Of a DNA stretch of 64,000 nucleotides, positions 13,109 through 30,021 are shown piece by piece. The stretch is from positions 2,055 to 66,054 of the forward strand of contig CAWIZN010000044.1 of the NCBI GenBank assembly GCA_963840495.1, given 5' to 3'. A program made the position numbers and the translations under genes. This DNA is from an uncultured Candidatus Rokubacteria bacterium (lineage in GTDB: Bacteria; Methylomirabilota; Methylomirabilia; Rokubacteriales; CSP1-6). Position 1 is the stretch's first letter, and each line of letters opens with the position of its first letter. Under the pieces are notes generated by a model. It searched no databases, was not told the origin of the DNA, and saw only the letters and a list, made by a program, of their open reading frames with translations.

Positions 13109-13111
13109 AGC

Positions 13112-14297
13112 ATGGCCGTGGCGATCGCCGAGCGGATTGTCATCGAGGCGGGCGGCGTCGTGACGCCCATCGGCCAGGATCTCGAGGCCTTCTGGTCGGC
13201 GCTGGTCACGGGCGCGTCGGGCATCTCGCAGATCGAGCGCTTCCCGGTCGGCGATCTCCGCGTGGGGCGCGGCGGCGAGATCAAGAAGCTCTCGCGGATC
13301 AAGGCGTGGGGCCGCGTGCCGGACTGCCGCGCCACGCGGCTCCTCGTGTCGGCCGCCGACGAGCTGGCCGCGCAGGGCGGGATTCGCTCGGTGGCGCCCG
13401 AGCGCCTGGCCGTGGTCGTCGGCACCGCGCTCGGCGGCGTCGAGGAGGGCGAGCGGGCGCTGGCCGGTGACGCGCGCCGCCGCCGCCTGCGCGATGCCCT
13501 CTACGATGCGCCCGCCCACAACCTCGCCCGATGGCTCGGCGCGCGAGGGCCGGTCATCACCGTGTCGACGGCGTGCGCCTCGGGGGCCACGGCCATGGCG
13601 CTCGGCGCCGATCTCCTCCGGTCGGACGAGGCGGATGCGGTGGTGGCGGGCGGGTACGACGTCCTCTGCCGCTTCGTGATGCGCGGCTTCGATGCGCTGA
13701 GGGCGCTGACCCGCGACGAGATCCGTCCCTTCGACCGCCGCCGGAGCGGGCTCTTGCTGGGCGAAGCCGCCGCCCTGGTCCTCCTGCGCCGCGAGCGCGA
13801 TGCGGCGGGGCCGCGGCTCGGCACGCTGCTCGGCTATGGCAGCGCCAGCGACGCCGCGCACATCTCGGCGCCCGATCCCGAGGGGCAGGGGCTCGAGCGC
13901 GCGGTCCGCGCCGCGCTCCGCGCCGCGGGAATTGGCCCCGATGCCGTCGACTTCGTCAGCGCCCACGGCACCGGCACCCCGCTCAACGACCCGATCGAGG
14001 CGGCGGTCCTCAGCGCGCGTGCTCGGGCCGCGCACCCCGACCGTGCCCGTCAACTCGATCAAGCCGAGCCTCGGCCACACCATGGGCGCCGCGGCCGTGC
14101 TCGAGGCGCTGATGTGCCTCTATGCCTTCCGCCGCGGCCTCATTCCGCCCACGCTCCACCTCGACGAGCCCGATCCCGCCTGCGCGCTCGACCACGTGCG
14201 CGGCGCCGCACGCGCGGCGCGCCCGCGGATCAGCCTCAGCACCTCGCTCGGCTTCGGCGGCTGCAATGCCGCGCTCGTGCTCGAGGGCGCGCCATGA
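13112..14297 (+). CDS. Beta-ketoacyl-ACP synthase (KAS I/II type, catalytic), one frameshift near 14020
   Basis: Cys-His-His motifs VSTACASGATAM, VSAHGTGTPLND and (in the frame of ORF 13800..14297) NSIKPSLGHTMGAAAVLE. The C-terminus is SLGFGGCNAALVLEG. Confidence 0.85.
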
Positions 14298-15106: not shown

Positions 15107-15378
15107 CTGAGAAGGAAGTCCTGGACGACCTGAAGACGATCATCGTCGAGCGGCTGCGCTTCGATCCGGCTCGCGCCGCCGAGATGACCCTCGACACCAC
15201 GCTGCCCAAGGGCGTCGACGGCTCGCTCGGGCTCGACTCCCTCGACTTCATCGAGCTGTCCGTGGGCATCGAGGAGCGCTTCGGCATCGTGATCGACGAG
15301 CGCGAAGATCTGAGCGACGAGTTCCTCTCCCTCGAGAGCCTGGCGCGCTTCGTCCTGTCCAAGTCCGCGAAGGGATGA
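15103..15378 (+). CDS. Acyl carrier protein
   Basis: GTG 15103 overlaps the upstream stop (GTGTGA). 91 aa, VTEKEVLDDLKTIIVERL...LGLDSLDFIELSVGIEERF, carrying the DSL phosphopantetheine motif. Confidence 0.85.
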   Translation: MTEKEVLDDLKTIIVERLRFDPARAAEMTLDTTLPKGVDGSLGLDSLDFIELSVGIEERFGIVIDEREDLSDEFLSLESLARFVLSKSAKG

Positions 15379-16587
15379 CCCGGGCCGCGTCGCCGCGCGT
15401 CGTCGTCAGCGGGCTCGGGGTCGTGAGCCCGTACGGCGCCGGCGTCAAGAGCCTGTGGACGGGCCTGTCCGCGGGCGCCTGCGCCATCCGCCCGGTCACC
15501 GCCATCGAGACGGAGGGGCTGCGCTCCCGCGTGGCCGCGGAGGTGCCCGCGGAGGTGCTGGTGGGGCTCGGGGCGTCGCGCCGGCGCTCGAGGGCCGACC
15601 GGCTCGCGCTCGCGGCGGCGGCCGAGGCGATGGCCGACGCGGGGCTCGAGCGGACGGGATCGGCGCCAGGCGGCCTGCCTCGTCGGGGCGGTGGGCGGCG
15701 GCATGCACGAGGCCGAGGCGTGGTACTGGGATGAGGTGCGGAGCGGGCGGCCCGCGCCCGGGCGCCGGCGCGCCCTTCGCTCCGTCCTGCCGCGCGCGCA
15801 CGCCGACGCGGTGGCCTTCCGTTTCGGGCTCGAGGGCCCGCGCGAGACGCTGGTGATGGCGTGCGCATCCGGCGCCGCCTCCATCGCGCTCGGCGCGGAC
15901 CTGATCCGCGACGGCGTGGTCGACGTGGCGCTGGTCGGCGGCGTCGACGCGCTCACGCGCATCTGCTTCATGGGCTTCAATGCGCTCAAGCTGCTCGCTC
16001 CCGAGCCGTGCCGGCCCTTCGACCGCGACCGCCGCGGCATGTCCATCGGCGAGGCCGCCGCGTTCCTCGTCCTCGAGGAAGCCGGGCGCTGTCGCGCGCG
16101 CGGGGGGCGCGCCCACGCCGAGCTGGCCGGCGCGGCGATGACGACGGACGCCCATCACGTGACCGCGCCGCATCCGGAAGGGGAGGGGATGATCCGCGCC
16201 ATGTCGCTGGCGCTCGGATCAGCAGCCATGGCGTCGGGCGAGATCGGCTACGTCAATGCCCACGGCACGGGCACCCCCCAGAACGACCGCATCGAGGCCC
16301 TCGCGCTCGCCCGCGTGTTCGGGGAGGGCCGGGTGCTGGTGAGCTCGTCGAAGTCGCTCGTGGGCCACACCATGGCCGCCGCGGGCAGCGTCGAGGCCAT
16401 CGCCACCATCCTCGCCCTCGAGCACGGCCTCGTGCCCCCGACCGCCAACCTGACCGAGATCGATCCCGCGGTGCCCTTCGACTGCGTGCCCGGCGCGGCC
16501 CGTCCGGCCGACCTGGGGGCGGCGCTGTCCAACTCGTTCGGCTTCGGGGGGCAGAACGTGAGTCTGATCTTCAGCCGGTTCGCTTGA
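15375..16587 (+). CDS. Beta-ketoacyl-ACP synthase (catalytic), one frameshift near 15670
   Basis: ATGA overlap with the ACP stop. The N-part is ORF 15375..15734 (VVVSGLGVVSPYG) and the remainder is ORF 15691..16587, with LVMACASGAASI, VNAHGTGTPQND, SLVGHTMAAAGSVE and SFGFGGQNVSLIF. Confidence 0.85.
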
Positions 16588-16588
16588 C

Positions 16589-18823
16589 ATGACGGGCTCG
16601 TCCGAGCCAACCTCTCCACCCGAGCGGCGGCGGGTGGTCATCACCGGGATGGGCACGGTCAATGCGCTCACCTCGGGGGGGAGATCTGCAGTGGCGGAGG
16701 CGCTCGCCCTCGGCCGATCGGGGATCGGGCCGCTTCGCGGCTTTGTCCCGGAGCCGGGCACGAGCGGGCTCGCGGCCGAGATCGACGACGCGCGGCTGGC
16801 CGCCCTCGTCGATCCGGCCGAGGCCCGCAGGCTCTCGCGGATCTGCCGCCTCACGGTGGCGGCGTGCCGCTTTGCGGTGGAGGATTCGGGGGTCGGATCC
16901 GGGCCCGGGCTCGCCATCGTCGTCGGCTCGGAGCACGGCGATTTCCGCTCGAGCGAGGAGTTCGCGAGGGGATATCTGCAGCGCGGGCTCGCGGGGCTCT
17001 CGCCGATGATCTTCCCCAATACCGTGATGAACACGATGGCCTCGGTGGCGGCCATCGCGGTGGGCGCGCGGGCACCCTCGGTCACGCTCAACCAGCCGAC
17101 CATCGTCGGCGACCTCGCGGTGGCCCGGGCGGCGGCGATCGTCGCGCGCGGAGATGCGGAGGCGGCGGTCGCCGGCGGCGTGGACGAGATCTGCGCCCTC
17201 GTCTATCGCCACCTCCGCGGTCTCGGGGCGCTGTCGCCGATGCGGGGCGGCGGGCCCGAGGGCTGCCGGCCCTATGCGGCGGATCACAATGGCCCGGTGC
17301 TCGGCGAGGGCGCGACGTTTCTCGTGCTCGAGAGCCTCGACGCCGCGCGCGCGCGGGGGGCGAGCATCGTCGCCGAGCTCGTGGACCAGGCCTGGGGGAA
17401 TGTGCCGGCGCCGGCGCACGCGGCGCGGCCGGGTCGGGCGGATCGCGGCTCGCCCGTCGGCCGCCTGCTCGCCGCGCACGCGGTCGCCGGCTTCCGCCGC
17501 GTGTACGGCGCCGGGAACGGCGACGCCGGCGTCGACGACTGGGAGCGCGGGCTGCTGGCGCGCGATCTCGGGCCGCGCGATGCCCCGCCGCTGTCCCTGG
17601 CGCCGCTCTTCGGCCAGCACGGAGGCCTGGGCGCGCTGCGCGTGGCCGCGGCGGCGCTGGACGCGGCGCGCGGCGTATCCCCCGTGCTCGTCCACGGGAT
17701 CGCGCGCGGCGGCTGTCGGACCGCGCTGATCGTCGCGGCCCTGGACCCTGTGACGGCCGGGACCATGAGTGATCACCTGATCGTCATCCCCGTCCACAAC
17801 GAGGCCGGCACCATCGGCGACGTGGTGCGGGGCGCCGCGCGCCACGGCGACGTCCTCGTCGTGGACGACGGCTCGACGGACGGCTCGAGCGAGGTGGCGG
17901 CGTCCGCAGGGGCCGACGTGATCCGGCTCGCGCGGCGGGGCGGCAAGGGGGCGGCGCTCCGCCGTGGGCTGACCGAGGCGCTCGCGCGCGACGCCCAGCG
18001 CGTCGTCACCATGGACGGCGATGGCCAGCACGATCCCGACGACCTCCCGCGGCTCCTCGCGGCGGCCGCCCAGGCGCCGGACGCGCTCGTCATCGGTGGG
18101 CGACTGGGCGGGATCGGGCAGCGCGCGGCGGAGTTGCCCCTTCCCTCCGGCCGGGTCGCGGCGATACGCGTGGCCGGATTCTTCATCAACTGGCTCACCG
18201 GCGCTGCCGTGTCCGACACGCAATCGGGGTTTCGCGTCTACCCCGCCGGCCTGATCGACGCCGTGCGCCCGCGCCGCGGAGGCTTCGTCCTCGAGTCGGA
18301 GATGCTGGTCGGCGCGGCCGCCCGCGGGTGGCGCCTCGTCGAGGTGCCGGTGGCGGCCATCCACTTCGCCGAGCGGCGCAGCCGCTTCCGTCCCGTCCGC
18401 GATGGCACCGCCGTCGGCACCTACCTGGCGGCGCGGATCGCGAGGCGCTGGTGCGGGGAGGCGTGGCTGATCGCCCGGGCGCTCTGCCGTCCCTTCACCG
18501 CGGCGCGGCGGCGGCCGCGGCATCGCGAGCTCGGCCGAGTTCACCGTCGTCCCACCGCCACCATCCGGCGGCGTGGGCGGCGGCGGTCGGGGTGTTCACG
18601 CGTGGACCGCACGCTCGCGACATGGCGGGATTGGCTGCGCGATCCGCGGGTGCGGCGCATGCGCGTGGCGGCGGTGGCGACGGCCGCCACGCCCGCGCTG
18701 CTGGCCCTGGCCCTCGCCACGCCGGCGCTGCGGCGCCTCGGCCTCGATCCCATTCCCGCCTTCGTCGACCGGTTCTACTCCCAGGAGCGCCTGGCCGGCG
18801 CCGCGGCCGAGCCATCTCCGTGA
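16589..18823 (+). CDS. Non-catalytic KS-like domain (active-site Cys replaced by Gln) fused in frame to a GT2 polyprenyl-phosphate-type glycosyltransferase with a hydrophobic tail
   Basis: Single 744-aa ORF. The KS fold has SVTLNQPTIVG where the neighbouring KS genes have TACASG. From ATG 17765 it reads MSDHLIVIPVHNEAGTI..VVDDGSTDGS..TMDGDGQHDP.., a GT2 domain. No stop lies between the two domains. Confidence 0.7.
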   Translation: MTGSSEPTSPPERRRVVITGMGTVNALTSGGRSAVAEALALGRSGIGPLRGFVPEPGTSGLAAEIDDARLAALVDPAEARRLSRICRLTVAACRFAVEDSGVGSGPGLAIVVGSEHGDFRSSEEFARGYLQRGLAGLSPMIFPNTVMNTMASVAAIAVGARAPSVTLNQPTIVGDLAVARAAAIVARGDAEAAVAGGVDEICALVYRHLRGLGALSPMRGGGPEGCRPYAADHNGPVLGEGATFLVLESLDAARARGASIVAELVDQAWGNVPAPAHAARPGRADRGSPVGRLLAAHAVAGFRRVYGAGNGDAGVDDWERGLLARDLGPRDAPPLSLAPLFGQHGGLGALRVAAAALDAARGVSPVLVHGIARGGCRTALIVAALDPVTAGTMSDHLIVIPVHNEAGTIGDVVRGAARHGDVLVVDDGSTDGSSEVAASAGADVIRLARRGGKGAALRRGLTEALARDAQRVVTMDGDGQHDPDDLPRLLAAAAQAPDALVIGGRLGGIGQRAAELPLPSGRVAAIRVAGFFINWLTGAAVSDTQSGFRVYPAGLIDAVRPRRGGFVLESEMLVGAAARGWRLVEVPVAAIHFAERRSRFRPVRDGTAVGTYLAARIARRWCGEAWLIARALCRPFTAARRRPRHRELGRVHRRPTATIRRRGRRRSGCSRVDRTLATWRDWLRDPRVRRMRVAAVATAATPALLALALATPALRRLGLDPIPAFVDRFYSQERLAGAAAEPSP

Positions 18824-19998
18824 GGAGGCTCCTGCCGCGCGGCTACCTGTTCACCGTGCTCGGCATCGCGGTGGGCGTGGCGGGGCTGGTGGCGCTCGGG
18901 GCGATGGCCGAGCGCATCTCGCGCTTCATCGAGGGCGGCGACCGCTTCGTCCTCGGCCAGATCTCGGTGGCCGGCGAGGGCATGGGGATGGGCGCGGGCT
19001 TCACCGCGGGCGGGCTGCTCCGCGCCGCCAAGATCGCCGAGATCGCCCGGGTCCCCGGCGTGGCGGCCGCCCAGCCGCAGGTGATGCTGCCGCTCAAGAC
19101 CACGACCTCGCAGTTCCTCACGCTCACCCAGGAATTGGTGCTGGGCACGGACATGAGCGTGCCCATGGTCAACCGGAACTACCGCGAGCTGCCCGTCCGG
19201 GCCGGCCGCTTTCTCCAGGCGGGCGACCGCGGCGTCGCGGTGCTGGGAACGGATTTCGCCGCCGCGCGCAAGCTCGGCGTGGGCGGCCGCCTCGAGGTGG
19301 CCGGCCTTTCGTGGAGGATCGTCGGCGTGCTCGACAAGACGCTGACGGCGCCGGACCGGTTTGCGATGGTGACGATCGAGGACGCGCGCGACCTCTGGCT
19401 GCGCCGCGATCCGCTCCTCGTCCAGCTCTTCGGGGCGGGCGGGCTCGGGCGCGGGGATCTGAACTCCGGGGCCGCGGTCGCCTGGCAGCCCGGCGAGGAT
19501 CCCGACGCCGTCGCGCGCCGCATCCAGGAGTCCGTGGCGGGCGTCAACGTCACGATTCCCGGCGAGGTGAGCCGGCTCCTCAAGGAGTCGACGGCGTTCT
19601 TCTCGGCGCTGCTCCTGGGCATCGGCGCGCTGGGCCTGGTGATCGGGGGGCTGTCGCTGTCGAACACGGTGACGGCCGCGGTGTTCGAGCGCATCCGCGA
19701 CTTCGGCATCAAGCGCGCGCTCGGGGCGACCGATCTGCACCTGCTGCGCGAGGTCCTGGGCGAGGCGCTCGGCGTGAGCCTCACCGGCGGGGCGGCGGGC
19801 GTCGCGATCGCGCTCGGCATCGGCTGGCTCGTGGATCTGCGCATCCTGCGCGACGGCCAGCAGGTCTTCCTGTTCTCGCCGCGCCTGCTGCTCTTCGCGC
19901 TCGTGTTCTCGGTCGTGCTCGGCGCGCTCGCCGCGGCCTATGCCACGCTGCGCATCGCGCATCTGTCGCCCGCGGAAGCCATCCGCCGCGGCACCTGA
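18820..19998 (+). CDS. ABC transporter permease, FtsX/MacB/LolC-type
   Basis: GTG 18820 overlaps the upstream TGA (GTGA). It has TM1 (LFTVLGIAVGVAGLVALGAM), a large periplasmic domain, then three C-terminal TMs with the FGIKRALGA motif. Confidence 0.8.
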   Translation: MRRLLPRGYLFTVLGIAVGVAGLVALGAMAERISRFIEGGDRFVLGQISVAGEGMGMGAGFTAGGLLRAAKIAEIARVPGVAAAQPQVMLPLKTTTSQFLTLTQELVLGTDMSVPMVNRNYRELPVRAGRFLQAGDRGVAVLGTDFAAARKLGVGGRLEVAGLSWRIVGVLDKTLTAPDRFAMVTIEDARDLWLRRDPLLVQLFGAGGLGRGDLNSGAAVAWQPGEDPDAVARRIQESVAGVNVTIPGEVSRLLKESTAFFSALLLGIGALGLVIGGLSLSNTVTAAVFERIRDFGIKRALGATDLHLLREVLGEALGVSLTGGAAGVAIALGIGWLVDLRILRDGQQVFLFSPRLLLFALVFSVVLGALAAAYATLRIAHLSPAEAIRRGT

Positions 19999-20001
19999 CG
20001 G

Positions 20002-20676
20002 ATGCTGGTCCGGGCCCGCGGGCTCGCCAAGTGCTATCGCGGGGCGGCCGGTCACCCCGTGCACGCGCTCCAGGCCGTCGACCTCGACGCCGTGCCCGGG
20101 GAGCTCGTCGCCGTCGTGGGCGCGTCGGGCTCGGGCAAGTCGACGCTCCTCAACCTGCTCGGACTGCTCGAGCCGCCCGACGCCGGCGAGATCTGGTTCG
20201 ACGACGTCCGCGTCAGCCACCTGTCCCGGCGCGCCCAGGCCCGGGTGCGCGGCACCCGCATCGGCTACGTCTTCCAGTCCTTCCTGCTCGTCTCCGGCCT
20301 CACCGCGATCGACAACGTCCTGCTCGCCGCGCGCTATGTCGGGCGCGACCGCGCGACCGCGCTGCGCGAGGCGATGGTCCTGATGGAGCGCCTCGGCGTG
20401 GCGGACCGCCGGGATCACTATCCCGCCGAGCTCTCCGGCGGCGAGCAGCAGCGGGTGGCCTATTGCCGCGCGGTGCTGAACGGTCCGCCGCTCGTGCTCG
20501 CCGACGAGCCCACGGGCAGCCTCGACGATGCCCACGCGCGGGTCATCCTGGGCGAGCTTCGCGGGCTGGTCCGCGAGCGCGGCACGTCGGTTATCCTGGT
20601 GACACACCGGGCCGAGGCGGCGGCGGAAGCGGACCGCGCGCTGCGGCTCGAGGCAGGACGCCTCGAACACGCATGA
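20002..20676 (+). CDS. ABC transporter ATP-binding protein, MacB/LolD-type
   Basis: 224 aa with GASGSGKSTLLN, LSGGEQQRVAYCRA and LVLADEPTGSLD. Confidence 0.9.
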   Translation: MLVRARGLAKCYRGAAGHPVHALQAVDLDAVPGELVAVVGASGSGKSTLLNLLGLLEPPDAGEIWFDDVRVSHLSRRAQARVRGTRIGYVFQSFLLVSGLTAIDNVLLAARYVGRDRATALREAMVLMERLGVADRRDHYPAELSGGEQQRVAYCRAVLNGPPLVLADEPTGSLDDAHARVILGELRGLVRERGTSVILVTHRAEAAAEADRALRLEAGRLEHA

Positions 20677-20708
20677 CGACTCGATTGCTGACATGAAGGA
20701 GACTCTCG

Positions 20709-21155
20709 ATGACGTGGCCAGTGATGCGATCTCTGGGATGGACGTTGGCGCTCGGACTTCTGATGGGCGCCGTCCTGGCGCCGACCCCTGCGGATGCCCA
20801 GGCCGACGAGCGGGTCCGGGTGTTCAATGCGCCGCTGGACCGCGTGTGGACCGTGACGCGCTCGACGCTCAAGAGCCTCGGGTGGGACATCGACAAGGAG
20901 GACCGCGAGGGCGGCTGGATCCGCACCGACTCGCGGCGCCTCGAGGGCGAGGACTTCGGCGTGTATGCCAAGGGCACGCGGCAGCGGCTGCGCGTCGCCA
21001 TGAAGGCGCTCGACCCGACCCGGACGCAGGTGACGGTCGAGCGGCGCGTCTGGAAGCAGGAGCGCATCCTGTGGATGGACAAGGAGGAGGATATCCAGGT
21101 GCCGGACCAGCTCGCCGAGAAGAAGGTCCTCGACGACATCGCCGCGGCGCTCTGA
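20709..21155 (+). CDS. Hypothetical secreted protein
   Basis: AAGGAG RBS before the ATG. Signal peptide MTWPVMRSLGWTLALGLLMGAVLAPTPADA. No family recognised. Confidence 0.55.
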   Translation: MTWPVMRSLGWTLALGLLMGAVLAPTPADAQADERVRVFNAPLDRVWTVTRSTLKSLGWDIDKEDREGGWIRTDSRRLEGEDFGVYAKGTRQRLRVAMKALDPTRTQVTVERRVWKQERILWMDKEEDIQVPDQLAEKKVLDDIAAAL

Positions 21156-21283
21156 TCCTCGGCCGGCCCAGGACGAAGGGCCCGTCGGCCACGCGCGATG
21201 CGCGGGGCCGCAGCAGTTGATGGTTGACAGTGAGGCGTGCTGCGGGAGACACTCCCGGCCGAGCCAGAATCGATGACGAGCCC

Positions 21284-22030
21284 ATGACCCAATCGACACC
21301 GCCCCACCCCGTCCTGGAGAAATACTACCCGAGCGACGCTGACCGACAGTCGTTCGTGGGTGCGCTGTTCGACGGCGCCGCCCGACACTACAACCGCATC
21401 GGCACAATGCTGGACCTGGGCTCGGGTCCCTGGTACCGCCGCTGGGCTCTTCGCCGCGCGGGCCTCCGTCCCGGGATGCGGCTGCTCGACGTCGCAACCG
21501 GCACGGGCTTGGTGGCGCGCGGCGCGGTGGGCATCCTCGGCGAACCCGGTCGGGTGATCGGCGTCGATCCGAGTCGCGGCATGCTGCGGGAAGCGCGAAA
21601 GGCGCTCGCCGGCCCCCTTGTCCAGGGCAGAGCCGAGGCGCTGCCGTTCCGCGACGACCTGTTCGACATGCTCAGCATGGGCTTCGCCTTGCGCCATGTG
21701 CCCGACCTCGAGGCGGCGTTCCGGGAGTACCGCCGCGTCTTGAAGCCGGGCGGGCGCCTGGTTCTCCTCGAGGTGTCCCGTCCACACTCGCCCGTCTCCC
21801 GCTGGCTGATCCGGGTCCATCTCCAGCACATCCTGCCCTTGATGGCGCGAATCAGCACGAGAAGCCAGCCGGCCCAGCTCCTCATGAAATATTACTGGGA
21901 CACGATCGACCGGTGTGTTCCGCCGGAGACGATCCTGGATGTCTTGCGGCGTGGTGGCTTCGTCGACGTCAACCGACGGACGCTCTTCGGATTCCTCAGC
22001 GAGTACTCGGCCGCGAAACCGTCGCCGTAG
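21284..22030 (+). CDS. Class I SAM-dependent methyltransferase (UbiE/MenG-like)
   Basis: Lies within ORF 21224..22030. Motif I is LLDVATGTGLVA, followed by FDMLSMGFALRHV and LKPGGRLVLLE. The start could be 21224 or 21284. Confidence 0.75.
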   Translation: MTQSTPPHPVLEKYYPSDADRQSFVGALFDGAARHYNRIGTMLDLGSGPWYRRWALRRAGLRPGMRLLDVATGTGLVARGAVGILGEPGRVIGVDPSRGMLREARKALAGPLVQGRAEALPFRDDLFDMLSMGFALRHVPDLEAAFREYRRVLKPGGRLVLLEVSRPHSPVSRWLIRVHLQHILPLMARISTRSQPAQLLMKYYWDTIDRCVPPETILDVLRRGGFVDVNRRTLFGFLSEYSAAKPSP

Positions 22031-22109
22031 AAGGCTGCCGGCTAGGAGCCTGTCGGAGAAGACCGGTAGAGCGAAGAGAAGGGTTCAGCTGCGCCGGTCT
22101 CGACGGGTG

Positions 22110-23882
22110 ATGGGCTCTCGCGGTTCGGGCGCCGCGGCCGCGATGGTGGCGTCGATCGCGCTCGCGCTCGTCTTGCTCCTGCCCGGTCTCGGCGCCGCGC
22201 CGTTCGACGATCCAGGGGAAGGCCAGCACGCGGAGATCGCCCGGGAGATCCGGGCGAGCGGCGACTGGCTCACGCTCAGGCTGAACGGCGTCCGCTATCT
22301 CGACAAGCCGCCCCTCCTCTACTGGCTTGCCGCGGGAGCCTTCGCGCTCTTCGGCGACGGCGAGTGGGCGGCTCGGCTCGTGCCGCTCGGGGGCGCGGTG
22401 CTCGCGGCAGCGGCGACGGCGCTCTTGGGCGCCCGCCTCCTCGGCCCCTGGGCGGGCCTCGGCGCGGCGGGCGCGCTCCTGTCGTCGGCGCTGTTCGTCG
22501 TCTTCGGCCGCTACGTGCGCCCGGAGACGCTCTTCGTCGCGGCCATTCAATGGGGCCTGGCGGGGCTCCTGCTGGGCCTGGCCGCCCCCGCGGAGAGCGG
22601 ACGGCGCCGCGTCTGGCTCCTCGTGGGCTGCGTCGGGCTCGCGCTCGCCTCGCTCGCCAAGGATCCGCTCGGGCTCATCGGCCCGCTCGGGGCCATCGCC
22701 CTGGCCCTGTCACTCGGCGGCCGACTCGCGGTCGGCGCGGCTGCCATGGGAGGGCGTGGCCGTCCTCATGATCCTGGGCTTCGGATGGTATCTCGTCGCG
22801 GCGATGCTGAGCCCCGGCTTCCTCTGGTACACGGTGGTCGACAACCACGTCCTGAACGCGCTCCGGCTGCGGCAGTTCCCCGACGAGGACGTCCCGCTCT
22901 CCTCCGCGGAGTTCCTCGCGGTGAGCGGGCTCGGCGCGTTTCCCTGGATCATCCCGGCCGGGCTCCAGGTGATCGCCCTCTGGCCGGCGGCGCGCGTGGC
23001 GCGATCCGGCGGAGACGGCGTGGGTGGCGCTCGCGCTGTGGACGACGGGACTGATCGCCCTCTTCGCGCTGTCTCCCTTCAAGCTGCCCCACTATGCGCT
23101 TCCCGCGTATCCGGCCATCGCGCTCCTCGCCGTTCGCTTCTGGAAGGAGCGCTCAGTCGGGTGGGCGGGCGCTCGTCGGCCTCCACCTGGCGCTCTTCGC
23201 CGCGCTCGCCGTCGGCGCCTTTCTCGTGGGGATGGGGGACGGCCGCGCCTTCGTGGACACCGTCTTCTCGGCGACGGATGTCTACACGCGGAAGGAGGCG
23301 GTGGTGGGCCAGGCCTCCCCGCTGCCCCCATGGTCTGCGCTCGGACCGCTGGTGACGCGCATGGCGATGATCTTCGGCGGGGGTGCGCTCGTCCTCGCGG
23401 GGGCGTTCGCGGCGCGGGCGGGGCGGCTCGGCTTCGCCGCGGTCCTCGCCACCATGCTCGCCGTGATGCCGCTCGCGACGGGGGCCGCCGCGCTCGTCGC
23501 CTCGGGGAGGGCGGTGGCGAGGATGGCCGAGGATCTCAAGCGGGAGATGGCGCCGGGCGATCTCCTCGTCCACGAGGGGCCGATCGAGAACTCCGGCGCG
23601 CTCGAGCTGTACTCGGGCCGGCGTCCTGCCCTCCTCGACGCCCGGCGAAGCGTCCTCGGCATCGGCGCCACCTATCCGGACGCGGCCGAGACGTTCTGGG
23701 ATGCGGGTGATCTGGCCCGCGCGTGGCAGTCCGGCCGCCGCGTCTTCCTCGTGACGCCGCGCGCGCCCGAGCAGAGCGCCGTCGCATCGTTGCCCCCCGG
23801 CACCGCGCATCTGCTGGAAGTCCGGAACGGCCGCTGGCTCTACAGCAACGTCGGCCGTCGGGGGCCTCAGCATGCGCGATAG
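22110..23882 (+). CDS. ArnT/PMT-family (GT39-like) membrane glycosyltransferase, three frameshifts as given
   Basis: DDPGEGQHAEIAREI..RYLDKPPLLYWL (ORF 21915..23054) is followed by FGWYLVAAMLSPGFLWYTVVDNHVLN (ORF 22327..), then ALFALSPFKLPHYALPAYPA (ORF 23024..), then the C-terminal part in ORF 23094..23882. The breaks are near 22735, 23000 and 23150. Confidence 0.7.
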
Positions 23883-23978
23883 CAATGTCGCCCGTCGGGT
23901 TGCGGGACCTTCGCGTTCTGCGCTACCGTGAGCCGGTGCATTCAACCGGTGAAGCGGTAGTGGATCAATCTGGGCTCT

Positions 23979-24038
23979 GGCACGGGGTACAGTTGCGAGC
24001 CAGCGAGCGTATGGGCGAAGTAAATTCGACCCAGTGCC
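23979..24038. repeat. Repeat family B, short copy, flanked by a 12-bp direct repeat
   Basis: GGCACGGGGTACAGTTGCGAGCCAGCGAGCG..GGCGAAGTAAATTCGACCCAGTGCC. The direct repeat CCGGTGAAGCGG occurs at 23946-23957 and 24037-24048. Confidence 0.6.
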
Positions 24039-24059
24039 GGTGAAGCGGGTCCGTTCCGG

Positions 24060-25481
24060 GTGACCGAGTACCTCCGCACGCTCTTCCTGCACCCGCCCTC
24101 GTTCGACGGCTTCGACGGGGGCGCCGGCTCACGGTACCAGGCCCGGCGGGAGATCCGATCGTTCTGGTACCCGACCTGGCTCGCCCAGCCGGCCGCGCTC
24201 GTGCCGGGCTCCCGCCTCGTCGACGCGCCGCCCGACGGCCTCTCGCTCGACGACGTGCGCCCGCTCGCCCGCGCCTACGATCTCTGCGTGATGCATACGA
24301 GCACGCCGTCCTTCGCCGCCGACGTGAAGGTCGCGGCGGCGTTGAAAGCCGAGAACCCGGGGCTGTCGATCGGCATGGTCGGCGCCGCGGTCGCGGTGGC
24401 GCCCGAGGCCTCGATGCGCAGCAACCCGGCGGTCGACTGGGTGGCGCGGGGCGAATTCGACCTGACCGTGCAGGAGATCGCCCAGGGGCGGCCGCTCGCG
24501 CGCGTCGCCGGGCTCGCGTACCGCGACGATGGCCGCGTCGCCTATACGCCCGATCGGCCGGTGCTCGAGGACATGGACCGGCTGCCCTTCGTCACACCCG
24601 TCTACAAGCGTGACCTCACCGTCGAGAACTACGCCATCGGGTATCTCCGCCACCCCTACGTGTCGCTCTACACCGGCCGCGGCTGCCGCTCGAAGTGCAC
24701 GTTCTGCCTGTGGCCGCAGACGGTGGGCGGGCAGCGGTATCGCACGCGCAGCGTCGGGCACGTGGCGGAGGAGATGGCCGAGGCGGTGCGGCTGTTTCCC
24801 CAGGTGCGCGAGTTCTTCTTCGACGACGACACCTTCACCGACGACCTGCCGCGGGCGGAGGCCATCGCCCGGCGGCTCGGGCCGCTCGGCATCACGTGGT
24901 CGGTGAACGCCAAGGCCACCGTGCCGCACGCGACGCTCAAGGTGCTGAAGGACAATGGCCTGCGCCTGCTCCTGGTGGGCTACGAGTCGGGGAGCCAGCA
25001 GATCCTGAACAACGTGAAGAAGGGCGTGCGGCTCGACGCGGCGCGCCGGTTCACGCGGGAGGCGAAGGCGCTCGGCATCACCATCCACGGGACGTTCATC
25101 CTGGGGCTGCCCGGGGAGACGCGCGAGACCATCGCCGAGACCATCCGCTTCGCGCGCGAGATCGATCCCGACACGATCCAGGTCTCCCTCGCCGCGCCGT
25201 ACCCCGGGACCGCGCTCTACGAGGAGGCGCAGCGGAACGGCTGGCTCGAGGACGACGGCGGCCTCGTGGACGGGGCGGGCGTCCAGCAGAGCGCCCTGGG
25301 CTATCCTCATCTCCCGCGGACCGAGATCTTCCGATCGCTCGACGAATTCTACCGCCGCTTCTACTTCCGGCCGCGCAAGATGATCTCGCTCGCCGCGGAG
25401 ATGCTGGGGGACCGCCACGTGATGCGGCGGCGGCTCCGCGAGGGGCGCGACTTCCTCCGCTTCCTCCGCGCCCGCCGGTAG
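24060..25481 (+). CDS. B12-binding-domain radical SAM enzyme, HpnJ-like
   Basis: Intact 473-aa ORF with a GTG start. LFLHPPSFDGFDGGAGSRYQARREIRSFWYPTWLAQP, radical-SAM cluster GRGCRSKCTFCLWP, and IQVSLAAPYPGT. From memory the overall pattern matches the HpnJ family. Confidence 0.75.
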   Translation: MTEYLRTLFLHPPSFDGFDGGAGSRYQARREIRSFWYPTWLAQPAALVPGSRLVDAPPDGLSLDDVRPLARAYDLCVMHTSTPSFAADVKVAAALKAENPGLSIGMVGAAVAVAPEASMRSNPAVDWVARGEFDLTVQEIAQGRPLARVAGLAYRDDGRVAYTPDRPVLEDMDRLPFVTPVYKRDLTVENYAIGYLRHPYVSLYTGRGCRSKCTFCLWPQTVGGQRYRTRSVGHVAEEMAEAVRLFPQVREFFFDDDTFTDDLPRAEAIARRLGPLGITWSVNAKATVPHATLKVLKDNGLRLLLVGYESGSQQILNNVKKGVRLDAARRFTREAKALGITIHGTFILGLPGETRETIAETIRFAREIDPDTIQVSLAAPYPGTALYEEAQRNGWLEDDGGLVDGAGVQQSALGYPHLPRTEIFRSLDEFYRRFYFRPRKMISLAAEMLGDRHVMRRRLREGRDFLRFLRARR

Positions 25482-25500
25482 CGCGCTGCGGGGTCCGTCC

Positions 25501-26244
25501 ATGAGCCTGCTCACCGGCCGGGTCGCCCTCGTGACGGGGGCGTCGCGCGGCATCGGCCGCGCCTGCGCCATCAAGCTCGCCACCCTCGGCGCCGCCGTCG
25601 TCGTGAACTTCAATACGAGCGCGACGGCGGCGCAAGGCGTGGTCGAGGAGATCCGGGCGGGTGGGGGAGACGCCCGAGCCGTGCAGGGCGACGTGAGCCG
25701 GCTCGCCGCCGCCCAGGGCGTGGTCAAAGCCGCCATCGACGCCTACCGCCGGCTCGACATCCTCGTGAACAATGCGGGAACGACGCGCGACGGGCTGCTC
25801 GCCGCCATGAGCGAAGAGGACTTCGACGGCGTCATCCAGCAGAACCTCAAGAGCGTCTTCAACTGCAGCAAGGCCGTCCTGCGGCAGATGATGAAGCAGC
25901 GCTACGGGCGCATCGTCAACGTGACGTCGATCGCCGGCGTGGTCGGCAACCCGGGCCAGACCAACTACTCGGCGGCGAAGGCCGGCATCATCGGCTTCAC
26001 CAAGGCGATGGCCAAGGAGTACGGGGCGCGCAACATCGCGGTCAATGCCGTCGCGCCCGGCTATGTCCCCACCGCGCTCACCAGCGGCGTGCCGCCGGAC
26101 ATCGCGGCGGGCATCGTCCGGCTCACCGCCCTCGGCCGGATGGGGACGGCGGCGGAGGTCGCCGCGGTGGTCGCCTTTCTCGCCTCCGACGAGGCGAGCT
26201 ACGTCACCGGCCAGGTCGTGGCGGTTGACGGGGGACTCACGTAG
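25501..26244 (+). CDS. fabG: 3-oxoacyl-ACP reductase
   Basis: 247 aa with VTGASRGIGRA, NNAGTTRD, YSAAKAG and VDGGL. Confidence 0.85.
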   Translation: MSLLTGRVALVTGASRGIGRACAIKLATLGAAVVVNFNTSATAAQGVVEEIRAGGGDARAVQGDVSRLAAAQGVVKAAIDAYRRLDILVNNAGTTRDGLLAAMSEEDFDGVIQQNLKSVFNCSKAVLRQMMKQRYGRIVNVTSIAGVVGNPGQTNYSAAKAGIIGFTKAMAKEYGARNIAVNAVAPGYVPTALTSGVPPDIAAGIVRLTALGRMGTAAEVAAVVAFLASDEASYVTGQVVAVDGGLT

Positions 26245-26259
26245 CAGGCTGCTGCTAGA

Positions 26260-27174
26260 GTGGAGTGCATGCCGCTGTCACTGACGCCCGAGCACGCGGT
26301 CCCGCGACCGCGCTGGCACTCGCACGCCTATAACCGCGCCGATCTCTACCGGCTCGCGGGGGCCCTCGGGTGGCTGCCGCGACGCGCGAGGCTCGCCCTG
26401 GCGCGGCGCATCGGACGGATGATGCCGCGGCTCATGCCCGCCGAGGAAGGGATCGTCCGGCGCACGCTCGCGCGCGTGACCGGCGCCACCGGCTCCCGGC
26501 TCGACGCGCTCACCGTCGGGACCTTCACGGACTTCGCGATGTGCTTCAGCGATCTCGTGTCCACGAATCGTCAGCCCGCGGCGCGCCTGCACTCCTACGT
26601 GGCGCGCGTGGAAGGCGCCGAGCGTGTCGCGCATCTCCAGGGTGGGCTCATCTCGCTCACCGCCCACGTGGGCAACTGGGAGCTGGCCGGTCGTCTCCTC
26701 GCGGGCCGCGCGGGCCGGACCACGCACGTGGTCGTGGCCGAGGACGAGGCCCGCGATCTCGGGCGCTGGGTTCGGCGTGACGGCGAGGGCGTGCGCTTCG
26801 TGTCCCGGTCGCGCCCGACCGTCTCCCTCGAGCTGGTGGCGGCGCTCCGGCGCGGGGAGGTGGTCGCCGTGCAGGGCGACCGGGCGCTCGGCACGCGCGG
26901 CGACGTCCTCCTCCCCTTCTTCGGAGCGCCCGCGCCATTCCCGCTCGGGCCATTCGTCCTCGCCCGTGCCGTCGGGGTGCCACTCGTCCCCGCGTTCTGC
27001 GTGCTCGATGAGAGCTACCGGTACACCGTGACGGTGACCGAGCCGCTGACCGTTGCGCGCGGTGGCGAGGAAGAGGCGGCTCGCACCTGGGTGGCCGCCC
27101 TCGAGCGGATCGTGGGCGAGCGCCCGACCCAGTGGTTCAACTTCTTCGACGTGTGGAGCCCGCCCGCCGCGTGA
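26260..27174 (+). CDS. LpxL/HtrB-family (lysophospholipid/lipid A type) acyltransferase
   Basis: 304 aa with the HX4E-type motif TAHVGNWELAG and, downstream, VAVQGDRA..PFFG. Confidence 0.7.
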   Translation: MECMPLSLTPEHAVPRPRWHSHAYNRADLYRLAGALGWLPRRARLALARRIGRMMPRLMPAEEGIVRRTLARVTGATGSRLDALTVGTFTDFAMCFSDLVSTNRQPAARLHSYVARVEGAERVAHLQGGLISLTAHVGNWELAGRLLAGRAGRTTHVVVAEDEARDLGRWVRRDGEGVRFVSRSRPTVSLELVAALRRGEVVAVQGDRALGTRGDVLLPFFGAPAPFPLGPFVLARAVGVPLVPAFCVLDESYRYTVTVTEPLTVARGGEEEAARTWVAALERIVGERPTQWFNFFDVWSPPAA

Positions 27175-28403
27175 CGACCGGCGGCGAGGCGGCGGAGGCG
27201 CTCGGCGCCCTCGGCCGGGAGGAGGCGGCCCGGAGCGCGGCGTTTCTGCGCGGGGCATTGCCCGGTCCGCTCCGACCCGCGTTCGGCGAAGCCTTCATCC
27301 GCTCGCATATCCTGTACGGCGAGTTCGTCTGCCGGCTCGTCCTCGGAATCGCGCGGGAGTGCGGGATGGCCACGGCGCTCGGCGCGCCGGGCGACGCCGG
27401 GGAGATCGCGGCGCGCGCAGGACTCGAGGCTCCGCAGGCGCGGGTGCCGGTCGATTGGATGCTTCGATTTCTCGCCGCGCGCGGGTGGGTCGCGGAGATC
27501 CCGGGCGGGGCAAATCGCCGGTATCGGTCGCGCGGCGAGCTGCCGCTGCTCGACGCGTTGCCGGTGCGGCAGGAGCAGCAGCGCTGGGACCCGTCGTGGA
27601 TGCCGGCGTATGTGCTGGCGGAGACGGTTGCGCGGGACTACCCGGCCTTCCTGCGCGGCGAGGTGGCGGGCGAGGACGTGCTGTTCGCTCCGCGCCGGCT
27701 CCGGCTCTGGGTCGACTACTTCTCGAACGACAATGGCCTCTACGCGGTCAATAACCGCGTCGGTGCCGTCGCCGTCGCGGATTGGCTGCCCGGGCCCGGC
27801 AGCTCGATTCTCGAGCTGGGCGGCGGGCTCGCCAGCGGCGCGCTCGCGCTGCTGGCGGAGCTCGAGGCGAGGGACCGTCTCCGCGACGTCCGGGGCTACC
27901 GCTTCACCGAGCCCGTGTCGGCGTTCCTGCGCCGAGGAGAGCAGACGCTGCGCGATCGGTACCCGGCATTGGGAGGCCTGAGCTTCGGCGCGCTCGACAT
28001 GAACCAGGGGTTCGGCGAGCAAGGGGTGGCGCCCGCGAGCGTGTCCGTCGTCTACGCGGTGAATACGCTGCACGCCGCACGTGATCTCGGGTTCACGTTG
28101 GAGGAAGTGCACCGGGCGCTGTCGCCCGGCGGCCGGCTCGTCATCTCCGAATGCGTGCCACCGCCCGAGCCCATCTATGCGGACTTCGTCTTCAATCTGA
28201 CAGAGGCATTTCGGTCTCCGCGGCTCGATCCGCGGCAGCGCCTGGGCGGCGGGTTCCTCGGGCTCGAAGACTGGACGGCGGTCCTGGAGGCGGCGGGATT
28301 CGAGGACGTCCGCGTCCTGCCCGACGTCGCGGCCATCCGCGCCGAGGTGCCTGATTTCAGCGTCGCGGCGATCGGCGGCGTGCGGTCCGGCGGAAAGCGG
28401 TGA
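27171..28403 (+). CDS. SAM-dependent methyltransferase with N-terminal dimerisation/substrate domain
   Basis: GTG 27171 overlaps the upstream TGA (GTGA). Motif I is SILELGGGLASGA, followed by LSPGGRLVISE. Lies within track ORF 27132..28403. Confidence 0.65.
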   Translation: MTTGGEAAEALGALGREEAARSAAFLRGALPGPLRPAFGEAFIRSHILYGEFVCRLVLGIARECGMATALGAPGDAGEIAARAGLEAPQARVPVDWMLRFLAARGWVAEIPGGANRRYRSRGELPLLDALPVRQEQQRWDPSWMPAYVLAETVARDYPAFLRGEVAGEDVLFAPRRLRLWVDYFSNDNGLYAVNNRVGAVAVADWLPGPGSSILELGGGLASGALALLAELEARDRLRDVRGYRFTEPVSAFLRRGEQTLRDRYPALGGLSFGALDMNQGFGEQGVAPASVSVVYAVNTLHAARDLGFTLEEVHRALSPGGRLVISECVPPPEPIYADFVFNLTEAFRSPRLDPRQRLGGGFLGLEDWTAVLEAAGFEDVRVLPDVAAIRAEVPDFSVAAIGGVRSGGKR

Positions 28404-28428
28404 TGAGACCGTGTGCTAGTATCGTCCC

Positions 28429-30021
28429 ATGCGAGTGCTGGTGATCGGCGCCATCGCGCCCGAGGGCGTCGCCTATCTGCGCGAGCGCGGAATCGAGGTC
28501 GACGAGGTGCCGGACACGCTCGCGAAGGGCGAGCTGTACGGGCGGCTCGGCGACTACGACGGCGTCATCACGCGCTCCTCGACCGCGGTCACCTCCGAGT
28601 TCCTGGCCCGTGCGAACAAGCTGCGCATCCTCGGGCGCGCCGGCGTGGGCGTGGACAATATCGACGTCGACGCGTGCTCGCATCAGGGCGTGATCGTCGT
28701 CAACGCGCCCTACGGCAACGTGGTCTCGGCGGCCGAGCACACCGTGGGCATGCTGCTCGCGCTGCTGCGCAAGATCCCGGTGGCCAATGACGCGCTCAAG
28801 CGGCTCGAATGGGACCGGCGCATCTACGGGTCGGAGCTGTATCGGAAGACGGTGGGGGTCCTCGGCCTCGGCAAGGTCGGCTCGCGCGTCGCCACGCGGC
28901 TGCGCGCCTTCGACATGAGCGTCCTCGTCTACGATCCGTATATTCCGGAGAGCCGCGCCCGCGAGCTCGGCGTGCGGCTCACGGACCTGCGCACCGTGCT
29001 CGCCGAGGCCGACGTCATCACCGTGCACGTGCCGCTGTCCGACGAGACGGAGAGCCTGCTCGGGGCCCGCGAGATCGCCCTGATGAAGCCGGGGGTGCGC
29101 ATCGTCAACTGCGCGCGCGGCGGCATCGTCCACGAGGGCGATCTGCTGGCCGCCCTCGAGTCGGGACACGTGGCGGGCGCCGCGGTCGACGTGTGGAGCG
29201 AGGAGCCGCCCGTCTCCGATCTCGTCAAGCGCCTCATCAGGCATCCGCAGGTGGTGGTGACCCCGCATCTCGGCGCCAATACGCACGAGGCGCAGATCAA
29301 CGTGGCGGTCGACGTGGCGCGAGAGCTCGTGGCCTTCCGGGACGGCGAGCTGGTCGAGCACGCCGTCAATGTCCCGGTGGGCGACCGGGAGAGCATGGCG
29401 GCGCAACGGCCCTTCCTGGCCCTCGCGGAGATGCTCGGACGGTTCTGCGTGCAGCTCGAGCCGGACAACGTCGAGCGCGTGGACGTGGTGGTGGCCGGCC
29501 AGGTCGCCCGCCGCGACCCCGAGCTGATCGCCCGCGCGGTGCTGAAGGGCCTGCTCGAGCCCGTGACGGCGCAGGCCGTCAATCTCGTCAACGCGCACCT
29601 GGTGGCGCGGGAGCGCGGCCTCGAGATCGCCGTGCACACCGACGAGGAGGCCGGCTCGGGGTATACCAACCTGATCACGGTGACGACCCAGGCGGGCGCG
29701 GCGAAGAAGATCCTCGCGGGCACGGTGTTCGACGGCGTCCCGCGCATCGTCCGGCTGAAGGATCTGCACATCGAGTTCATTCCCGAGGGGCATATCCTCG
29801 TGCTCTCCTACGAGGACCGGCCGGGCGTGGTGGGCAAGATCGGCTCCATCCTCGGCCGCCACAACGTCAATATCGCCTCCATGCACGTGGGGCGCCGGAC
29901 CAAGCGGGGCCGGGCCATCGTCGTGCTGCTGCTGGACGAGAACGTGCCCGACGAGGTGATGGAGGAGGTCGAAAAGGCCGTGGAAGCCGATTTCGCGCGC
30001 ATCGTCCGGTTGGGACCATGA
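28429..30021 (+). CDS. serA: D-3-phosphoglycerate dehydrogenase (long form with ACT domain)
   Basis: 530 aa with GRAGVGVDNID, GLGKVGSRVA, NCARGGIV, PHLGA and a C-terminal ACT-like domain (LVLSYEDRPGVVGKIGSILG). Confidence 0.9.
   Translation: MRVLVIGAIAPEGVAYLRERGIEVDEVPDTLAKGELYGRLGDYDGVITRSSTAVTSEFLARANKLRILGRAGVGVDNIDVDACSHQGVIVVNAPYGNVVSAAEHTVGMLLALLRKIPVANDALKRLEWDRRIYGSELYRKTVGVLGLGKVGSRVATRLRAFDMSVLVYDPYIPESRARELGVRLTDLRTVLAEADVITVHVPLSDETESLLGAREIALMKPGVRIVNCARGGIVHEGDLLAALESGHVAGAAVDVWSEEPPVSDLVKRLIRHPQVVVTPHLGANTHEAQINVAVDVARELVAFRDGELVEHAVNVPVGDRESMAAQRPFLALAEMLGRFCVQLEPDNVERVDVVVAGQVARRDPELIARAVLKGLLEPVTAQAVNLVNAHLVARERGLEIAVHTDEEAGSGYTNLITVTTQAGAAKKILAGTVFDGVPRIVRLKDLHIEFIPEGHILVLSYEDRPGVVGKIGSILGRHNVNIASMHVGRRTKRGRAIVVLLLDENVPDEVMEEVEKAVEADFARIVRLGP

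Follow-up and report, generated by a model that had tools for sequence, protein, structure and literature searches.

A lineage-wide HpnJ without HpnI and HpnK in Rokubacteria, and candidate alternative partners of a head-group enzyme

How can an enzyme that remodels an amino-sugar head group be kept by an order of bacteria that lacks the genes forming its canonical substrate? This question is raised by hpnJ, which encodes a B12-binding-domain radical S-adenosylmethionine (SAM) enzyme and occupies positions 24060..25481 (+ strand) of the 64-kb stretch of DNA analyzed here (C44:2055-66054; hereafter the window). The window belongs to a metagenome-assembled genome (MAG) of Rokubacteria/Methylomirabilota, which comprises 4.83 Mb in 83 contigs with 70% G+C and an estimated completeness of 79.7%. 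Genetics in Burkholderia cenocepacia indicated that HpnJ converts bacteriohopanetetrol with a glucosamine head group to the five-membered cyclitol ether, and the genetics, together with the analogy with QueE and calditol synthase, suggested hydrogen abstraction at C-5, opening of the ring, and closure between C-1 and C-5 (PMC13459092). Cyclitol-ether hopanoids serve as biomarkers, and their occurrence is predicted in genome surveys by the presence of the hpnI/hpnJ/hpnK trio. We found that the gene in the window belongs to a known family, but that its context is new and lineage-wide: the soil-dominant order to which the host belongs carries a conserved hpnJ under selection without hpnI or hpnK. 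Below, C numbers denote the contigs of the host genome, G labels the genomes of relatives, and L labels the hpnJ-bearing loci compared.

An intact hpnJ in an order lacking hpnI and hpnK

The initial annotation of the window described an intact open reading frame (ORF) of 473 amino acids (aa), carrying a CRSKCTFC cluster and terminal signatures of HpnJ. All of these claims were borne out. The ORF begins with GTG and contains no internal stop, the cluster lies at residues 209-216 as the single CxxxCxxC motif of a protein with the B12-binding plus radical SAM layout, and both signatures, LFLHPPSFDGFDGGAGSRYQARREIRSFWYPTWLAQP and IQVSLAAPYPGT, were found in the translation. Against TIGR03471, the HpnJ equivalog model of NCBIfam, the protein scored 761.6 bits, exceeding the curated cut-off of 577.6 by 184 bits, with an alignment spanning residues 6-473 of the ORF and positions 2-471 of the 472 in the model; the runner-up NCBIfam family reached 115 bits only, and a six-frame search of the host genome with TIGR03471 gave the same result. 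Pfam Radical_SAM matched with 71.2 bits, while Pfam B12-binding matched with 25.2 bits, which is under the gathering score of 32.1, albeit the corresponding region does align to the HpnJ model. The closest copies (83-84% identity) are of Rokubacteria and come from MAGs mostly labelled Rokubacteria or Methylomirabilota; two of these MAGs are labelled Acidoferrum and Deferrimicrobiaceae, which we take to be mislabels. The identity to the proteobacterial HpnJ from verified operons, namely hpnI-hpnJ-hpnK of Gluconobacter and hpnJ-hpnI-hpnL of Paraburkholderia, was 63-72%. Pairwise dN/dS of hpnJ ranged from 0.17 to 0.28. Judging from these sequence comparisons, we regard the ORF as a true and intact HpnJ orthologue under purifying selection.

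In the maximum-likelihood tree of 105 HpnJ copies, the sequences formed one tight family with the Rokubacterial copies at the base, and the copies linked to hpnI, to hpnN, and to the lipid gene cluster described below were interleaved without a deep split. Among the 189 columns conserved at 97% or more in the hpnI-linked HpnJ, 175 (93%) are kept in the hpnI-less Rokubacterial set, and the two groups are told apart by one column only. A separate, paralogous subfamily of the cluster type was considered and rejected on the interleaved tree and the single separating column. These patterns speak against the possibility that the Rokubacterial HpnJ is a different enzyme.

The initial annotation stated that shc (the gene of squalene-hopene cyclase, SHC), hpnH, hpnI, and hpnK are absent from the window, and we indeed obtained zero matches inside it. 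Nevertheless, a hopanoid core locus is present on the same contig at C44:137702-150620, approximately 110-125 kb downstream of hpnJ and 71-85 kb past the end of the window. The genes in this locus are, in order, hpnN, ino1, hpnM-like, mlaF-like, shc, cruF-like, hpnH, hpnG-like, and hpnA; hpnJ is not among them. The order matches that in the sister genome G004, in which each gene was identified by NCBIfam. The shc gene (C44:144546-146435) scored 770.1 bits, hpnH (C44:147338-148353) was recovered in three frame pieces with approximately 505 bits summed, and the hpnG-like gene is a partial match of 117 bits. The host thus encodes both SHC and HpnH of C35 hopanoid synthesis. In relatives, hpnJ adjoins hpnN in convergent orientation (G002, G004, and G007), and the two genes are adjacent in G005 and L021 as well. 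As the core locus of the host lacks hpnJ while relatives keep hpnJ beside hpnN, the first half of the earlier suggestion, that the gene is either a displaced hpnJ or has been recruited to a different lipid, is correct; the second half is ranked second below. It had also been proposed that a hpn cluster lacking only its own hpnJ would make the gene in the window an ordinary displaced hopanoid gene. A core locus without hpnJ was found, but the displacement is not ordinary because hpnI and hpnK are absent.

In the host genome, the best match to HpnI was 36.9 bits against a cut-off of 310 in a frameshift-tolerant six-frame search with hidden Markov models (HMMs), and the best match to HpnK in the six-frame search was 78.6 bits against a cut-off of 232.6. 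The latter is a generic YdjC-like gene on C76 that covers model positions 2-149, the N-terminal half. No match above 55 bits was obtained by tblastn of the verified HpnI and HpnK of Gluconobacter and Paraburkholderia against the host genome. We then surveyed 41 genomes of the order with the curated model cut-offs. HpnJ was above the cut-off in 26 and SHC in 38 of the 41 genomes, while HpnI was found in three, each adjoining an hpnJ, and HpnK in none. The relatives possessing HpnJ without HpnI or HpnK include G004, G006, G007, G034, G036, and G040, which are 98-100% complete in 10-30 contigs. As these near-complete relatives show the same absence, incompleteness does not explain the missing genes. 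An ordinary displaced hpnJ, whose partners were overlooked in a MAG of approximately 80% completeness, fragmented into 83 contigs and bearing frameshift errors, is therefore very improbable, because neither the frameshift-tolerant HMM search nor tblastn detected the two genes and the near-complete relatives agree. Altogether, the lack of hpnI and hpnK is lineage-wide in this order. The YdjC-like gene on C76 was examined as a substitute for HpnK and rejected, as it had no supporting context and its homologues occur in 37 of the 41 genomes regardless of hpnJ.

Outside the order, 58 of 72 hpnJ copies have hpnI at a distance of no more than 2 kb, and hpnK frequently accompanies the two. Alphaproteobacteria have been reported to carry either all three of hpnI, hpnJ, and hpnK or none of them (PMC12583986), and only hpnK is absent in Acidobacteria subdivisions 1 and 3 (PMC5462960). 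Our literature searches did not turn up any report of a Rokubacterial hpnJ lacking hpnI and hpnK, nor of the swapping of its partners.

The absence of the canonical substrate-forming genes could be taken to mean that hpnJ is a functionless relic left after the loss of hpnI and hpnK, and a truncated, cluster-linked copy in G021 (see below) is consistent with such decay. We consider a relic hardly credible, as the ORF has remained intact although frame errors are frequent in the assembly, the dN/dS values are low, HpnJ is found in 26 of the 41 genomes, and its operon position is conserved.

Exchange of the gene next to hpnJ

The genes next to hpnJ differ between lineages. In at least 12 related loci, a gene for a glycosyltransferase of the GT-C type is directly followed by hpnJ, with a gap of 37-66 bp. 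The family with this arrangement, termed f1, includes the window and, for example, G006, G016, G018, G019, G020, and L023. In a second family, f4, hpnJ follows ABC genes, a CDP-alcohol-phosphatidyltransferase-like gene, and an HpnL-like gene. The CDP-alcohol-like protein scored 44 bits against the PIP-synthase model and the HpnL-like protein 126.8 bits against the HpnL model with a cut-off of 195.65; in f4, the end of the HpnL-like ORF is overlapped by hpnJ when the latter is called from its first in-frame start. In both f1 and f4, hpnJ lies beside a conserved cluster of a ketoacyl synthase (KS) and a chain-length factor (CLF), an acyl carrier protein (ACP), a family 2 glycosyltransferase (GT2), a MacB ABC exporter, and an LpxL-like protein. 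Thus, the lipid cluster stays beside hpnJ across two families, and the ABC genes of the cluster adjoin hpnJ in at least 18 genomes of these families.

G021 carries hpnI, hpnJ, a CDP-alcohol-transferase-like gene, an HpnL-like gene, and hpnN on one contig, and a pair of CDP-alcohol-like and HpnL-like genes likewise flanks hpnI-hpnJ in G009. A second hpnJ of G021 (L139:7300-7827, G021:C86) is a remnant corresponding approximately to residues 277-463 with 59% identity, which lies directly after a GT-C gene and is followed by LpxL-like and methyltransferase-like genes. The truncation of the cluster-linked copy beside a complete, hpnI-linked copy fits two copies doing the same job. In a clade labelled as Actinomycetota, eight hpnJ loci have a GT28/diglucosyl-diacylglycerol-synthase-like transferase in the position of hpnI (for example, L049:8732-9934, L032:8724-9857, and L066:8094-10001), and no shc was found within 10 kb of these hpnJ genes. 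Altogether, the neighbour of hpnJ is nearly always a head-group-installing enzyme, the type of which varies by lineage. As GT28-like, GT-C, or CDP-alcohol-like plus HpnL-like proteins stand in the place of HpnI, we propose that the sugar-installing partner has been swapped between lineages.

GT2 and GT-C pairs such as ArnC/ArnT bring amino sugars to membrane lipids, and such a pair is relevant here because a lipid-linked amino sugar is the kind of substrate that HpnJ needs. From the gene contexts, we infer a donor route, an acceptor lipid, and a reaction for the Rokubacterial enzyme. The GT2 and the GT-C encoded in the window, like ArnC/ArnT or FlmF2/FlmK, would put an amino sugar on a membrane lipid, and the acceptor would most probably be the side chain of a hopanoid. 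HpnJ would subsequently contract the sugar ring by a radical mechanism, in which a hydrogen is abstracted at C-5 and the ring opens and closes again between C-1 and C-5, to yield a cyclitol-ether-type head group. We hold with middling confidence that HpnJ still contracts the ring in this lineage, its substrate being a hexosamine that a route other than HpnI attaches, probably to a hopanoid side chain.

Several points weigh against this proposal. The GT-C gene and hpnJ are separable, since G002, G004, and G005 keep the former in the lipid cluster while their hpnJ adjoins hpnN. No candidate deacetylase was recognized in the cluster linked to hpnJ. GT-C enzymes act at the outer side of the inner membrane and radical SAM enzymes in the cytoplasm; therefore, the glycolipid must flip back or the order of the steps must differ. 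The GT-C gene in the window is split between frames, which would count against the proposal if the gene were a pseudogene, but the split is probably a sequencing error (see below). Furthermore, the subclade comprising the window, L015-L019, and G005 bears the replacements C282V, in the motif TWSCNAKANVP, and H225Q, both at residues invariant in all 59 hpnI-linked copies, and these may alter the chemistry. The window protein alone additionally bears N287T. The matches in the PDB, 9ccb (68.9 bits) and AprD4 6fd2 (61 bits), are too distant to place C282 and H225. Finally, HpnJ has never been assayed biochemically, and a review of 2026 still calls the enzyme putative (PMC13459092).

The lipid gene cluster and the acceptor lipid

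In the window, hpnJ forms part of a co-directional array that runs from approximately 11.6 to 28.4 kb, with cluster genes on both sides and downstream gaps of 15-19 bp. The neighbours named in the initial annotation, namely a GT39-type (PMT_2/ArnT-like GT-C) glycosyltransferase, FabG, an LpxL-type acyltransferase, and an upstream GT2, were all identified, but the description requires a correction in that not all of the neighbouring genes are intact in the host assembly. All of the genes described here are on the + strand.

The left edge of the cluster is a short-chain dehydrogenase/ketoreductase gene (11611..12327; Pfam adh_short_C2, 195 bits). It is followed by a conserved gene of unassigned function, unk275 (12379..13105), which is broken into two ORFs (91 and 162 aa), shows 60-66% identity to a 275-aa gene of G006 adjoining the LpxL-like gene, and had no match in Pfam or NCBIfam. 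The 91-aa ORF (12331-12606) was considered as an ACP and rejected, being the N-terminal piece of the frame-split unk275. Two beta-ketoacyl-ACP synthase genes follow, at 13133..14282 with a frame change near 14011-14043 and at 15159..16584 with a frame change near 15643-15650, and subsequently a KS-like gene of the CLF type (16625..17746), which matched the ketoacyl-synthase N-terminal domain only and is 48% identical to the CLF-like gene of G006. The GT2 gene (17780..18820), approximately 5 kb upstream of hpnJ and 50% identical to that of G006, is of the polyprenyl-phosphate-sugar-synthase type (PpgS/AglJ/ArnC-like), with 75.5 bits for Pfam Glycos_transf_2 and 94.8 and 92.9 bits for the PpgS and AglJ models of NCBIfam, both under the cut-offs. 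A permease gene of the MacB/FtsX type (18814..19998; Pfam MacB_PCD and FtsX) and an ATPase gene of the LolD/MacB type (20002..20676, by family matches) encode the ABC exporter; the permease is 79% identical to that of L015 and has an orthologue in 30 of the 41 relatives. A small conserved gene, unk166 (20709..21155), without a family match in the Pfam and NCBIfam scans, is conserved between the ATPase and GT-C genes in f1. The gene of a UbiE-like SAM methyltransferase (21224..22030) has a 61% identical homologue in the G021 cluster.

Directly upstream of hpnJ is the ArnT/PMT_2-like GT-C gene (22191..23882; Pfam PMT_2 and PMT), which scored 58 bits against the ArnT model NF009784, compared with 90 bits for the intact orthologue of G006. 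The gap between this gene and hpnJ is 177 bp, compared with 37-66 bp in relatives, because of a short insert (23946..24048, no strand assigned) flanked by the 12-bp direct repeat CCGGTGAAGCGG, which is present twice, 91 bp apart, just upstream of the hpnJ start. On the downstream side, the gene of a FabG-type 3-oxoacyl-ACP reductase (25501..26244) starts 19 bp past the hpnJ stop; it scored 298.0 bits against TIGR01830 with a cut-off of 297.75, and 252.8 bits against FlxB_rubin_SDR, under the cut-off. The gene of the LpxL/PIM-acyltransferase-like protein (26260..27174; Pfam Lip_A_acyltrans, 95 bits), the best NCBIfam match of which is phosphatidylinositol mannoside acyltransferase with 70 bits, under the cut-off, has orthologues within the same cluster in G006, G033, G040, and G021. 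A gene for a 423-aa protein with a weak match to a methyltransferase fold in Pfam (27132..28403) travels with the LpxL-like gene (orthologues of 61% in G033 and 57% in G021). The right boundary is serA, encoding phosphoglycerate dehydrogenase (28429..30021; TIGR01327, 626.8 bits), which directly follows hpnJ in L015-L019. A scan of 20500-30500 for promoters and terminators yielded nothing useful. G006, a relative with a clean assembly, possesses the same cluster, in which a flavin halogenase-like gene is also found and an ACP gene precedes the KS gene.

By blastx against the intact orthologues of 602-610 aa in L015 and L017, the ArnT-like gene was resolved into four frame segments (approximately 22191-22688, 22741-22971, 22985-23152, and 23145-23861). 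The two KS genes and unk275 are also split relative to the relatives assembled from short reads, and elsewhere in the host genome the same is true of hpnH, found as three pieces, and of hpnN and the cruF-like gene, found as two each. Frame breaks were recorded over 12379-23882 of the window and at C60:37239-41190. Pseudogene decay of the GT-C, KS, hpnH, hpnN, cruF-like, and unk275 genes was considered at first, but as the essential rpoB is also split across two frames in this assembly, we regard indel errors in the assembly as most likely. The gene calls and the completeness estimate of the host MAG are affected by these frame breaks. In the window, the CLF-like KS and the GT2 form one 744-aa ORF (16589-18823), while they are separate ORFs in G006 and G040, and the GT2 of L015 instead continues into the halogenase-like gene. 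These fusions may be only apparent, arising as artefacts from high G+C or from indels.

The tight and co-directional placement of hpnJ in a cluster conserved across two families is the reason for which we keep, in second rank, the other half of the earlier suggestion, that the same chemistry serves another lipid. HpnJ would then act on a non-hopanoid lipid that the cluster itself makes, contracting its hexosamine head group. KS/CLF, ACP, and the ketoreductase would build an acyl or polyenoyl chain, the LpxL/PatA-like protein would transfer the acyl group, the sugar would be attached by GT2 and GT-C, and export would proceed through the MacB ABC system. A phospho- or acyl-linked aminocyclitol lipid, as the bacterial counterpart of the archaeal calditol lipids, would be an example of such a product. 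This view is in line with the 15-19-bp gaps downstream of hpnJ in the window, the LpxL-like and methyltransferase-like genes after the truncated copy in G021, the adjacency to the ABC genes in the two families, and the transferase of the Actinomycetota-labelled clade, which resembles diacylglycerol glycosyltransferases and has no shc within 10 kb. Moreover, related clusters of the aryl polyene (APE) type build a lipid with glycerol, phosphate, and N-acetylgalactosamine (GalNAc) by means of a GT2 (10.1101/2020.12.19.423268), and calditol synthase is a case of ring contraction on a non-hopanoid lipid (PMC13459092). On the other hand, five genomes have hpnJ in the hopanoid locus next to hpnN and retain the cluster at another place, the HpnL-like and hpnN neighbours tie the copies of f4 and G021 to hopanoids, and no sequence split separates the cluster-linked HpnJ from the hpnI-linked one. 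We therefore regard a non-hopanoid lipid as unlikely, albeit deserving consideration.

The distribution of the genes contributes little to this choice. Across the 41 genomes, HpnJ and the cluster permease were both present in 27, both absent in nine, and discordant in five, a pattern that may be read in favour of the cluster-made lipid and for which a naive Fisher test gave p = 2.9e-5. The joint absences are scattered on the SHC tree. However, they fall in MAGs of 72-97% completeness, and an independent-pairs sign test was weak (p = 0.06-0.6). Four of the five discordant cases are on contigs no longer than 7 kb, and the cluster is cut at a contig end in G013, G022, and G028. We place little weight on the co-occurrence because linked genes can vanish with one missing contig, and discounted it as a proof of a functional link. 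Furthermore, presence and absence cannot tell a hopanoid from another lipid, since SHC is near universal in the order.

The host genome contains other genes of triterpenoid metabolism. A second triterpene cyclase is encoded at C53:44403-46328 (905 bits against the 2,3-oxidosqualene cyclase model TIGR03463 with a cut-off of 851), and a HpnA/SdmB-like short-chain dehydrogenase with 38% identity to HpnA at C53:35561-36598, approximately 8 kb away. The C53 locus suggests a capacity for sterol-type cyclization beside hopanoids. A second hopanoid-linked locus (C30:22286-26036) comprises the gene of the C-3 methylase HpnR (794 bits, cut-off 650), together with CDP-alcohol-transferase-like and HpnM-like genes and a fragment that is HpnL-like. 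In the core locus, ino1, encoding inositol-3-phosphate synthase, lies between the hpnM-like gene and hpnN (C44:140607-141710), as in sister genomes such as G004 (L117:7807-8970), which hints at a tie of inositol or cyclitol to the head groups or the transport of hopanoids.

This position of ino1, shared by the host and G004, raises the alternative that HpnJ has a different job, that is, in a hopanoid-linked CDP-alcohol/inositol-type head-group route with ino1 and the CDP-alcohol-like and HpnL-like proteins, rather than in the contraction of glucosamine to a cyclitol. The direct succession of the CDP-alcohol-like and HpnL-like genes and hpnJ in f4, the same pair flanking hpnI-hpnJ in G021 and G009, and C282V and H225Q at sites invariant in 59 of 59 hpnI-linked copies are consistent with this alternative. 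Nevertheless, as G021 and G009 carry this pair alongside hpnI, it is an addition to the canonical module and not a replacement. The weak CDP-alcohol and HpnL homologues of the host are far from hpnJ (C30:22286-26030 and C44:131654-132283), 93% of the near-invariant positions are kept, and the identity to HpnJ of characterized context is 63-72%. We thus regard a different job as improbable.

A broader possibility is that HpnJ is a general enzyme converting a lipid-linked hexosamine to an aminocyclitol, with the lipid set by the adjacent partner (HpnI, GT28-like, GT-C, or CDP-alcohol-like plus HpnL-like). Here, an aminocyclitol lipid of the envelope, either non-hopanoid or a hopanoid-acyl composite, would be produced and exported by HpnJ together with the ArnC/ArnT-like pair and the KS, ACP, LpxL-like, and MacB proteins. 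We offer this generalization as a speculation, more tentatively still than the cluster-made non-hopanoid lipid; in the literature, we found no acylated cyclitol-ether hopanoids described. If true, a class of envelope lipids undescribed in bacteria and parallel to the archaeal calditol lipids would exist. For the route through a non-HpnI transferase, which we prefer, the consequence is that gene-based predictions of the makers of cyclitol-ether hopanoids are incomplete, if the head group is indeed made by an unrecognized route; alternatively, the chemistry of HpnJ serves another lipid. In addition, the swapping of neighbours yields concrete candidates for alternative sugar-installing enzymes, and C282V and H225Q are natural variants of an enzyme, the mechanism of which lacks in vitro study.

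Comparison with known systems

ArnC/ArnT of Escherichia coli, FlmF2/NaxD/FlmK of Francisella, and PpgS/Rv3779 of Mycobacterium are systems that transfer amino sugars to lipids. The window resembles them in having GT2 and GT-C folds in one co-directional array, which is syntenic in f1. In contrast, the scores are far under the cut-offs (PpgS, 94.8 versus 370 bits; ArnT, 58-90 versus 567 bits), and neither a deformylase or deacetylase nor a flippase of the ArnE/F type was recognized in the window cluster. To our knowledge, none of the three systems includes a radical SAM enzyme.

The calditol synthase Cds of Sulfolobus acidocaldarius, also a radical SAM enzyme, is proposed to contract a hexose to an ether-linked cyclopentane polyol on a lipid (PMC13459092). 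Cds differs from HpnJ in being archaeal and acting on glycerol dialkyl glycerol tetraether lipids, and the likeness considered here is one of chemistry.

APE and flexirubin clusters share with the window cluster KS and CLF-like proteins, ACP, a ketoreductase, a SAM methyltransferase, an LpxL-family protein, a GT2, and an exporter of their own, and the relatives additionally possess the flavin halogenase-like gene. APE lipids carry a head group of GalNAc, phosphate, and glycerol, and the core set of the APE clusters consists of KS, CLF, ACP, dehydratase, ketoreductase, and the resistance-nodulation-division (RND) transporter ApeM (10.1101/2020.12.19.423268). Of this set, KS, CLF-like, ketoreductase, and ACP (the last in G006) were found, while no dehydratase or RND transporter was recognized; an ApeH-type adenylating enzyme, a hot-dog dehydratase, a thioesterase, LolA-like and DUF3261 proteins, and ApeM were likewise not recognized in the cluster. 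The exporter is instead of the MacB-type ABC class, and GT-C and HpnJ, both absent from APE clusters, are present.

Also among the closest known systems is the HpnI-HpnK-HpnJ module of B. cenocepacia, the genes of which are likewise found in Alphaproteobacteria such as Gluconobacter and relatives of Methylobacterium. The window differs from it in the absence of hpnI and hpnK, in the ArnT-like GT-C, FabG, and LpxL-like genes flanking hpnJ, and in C282V and H225Q. Nevertheless, the HpnJ family and its domain layout are the same, and the host possesses shc, hpnH, an hpnG-like gene, and hpnN.

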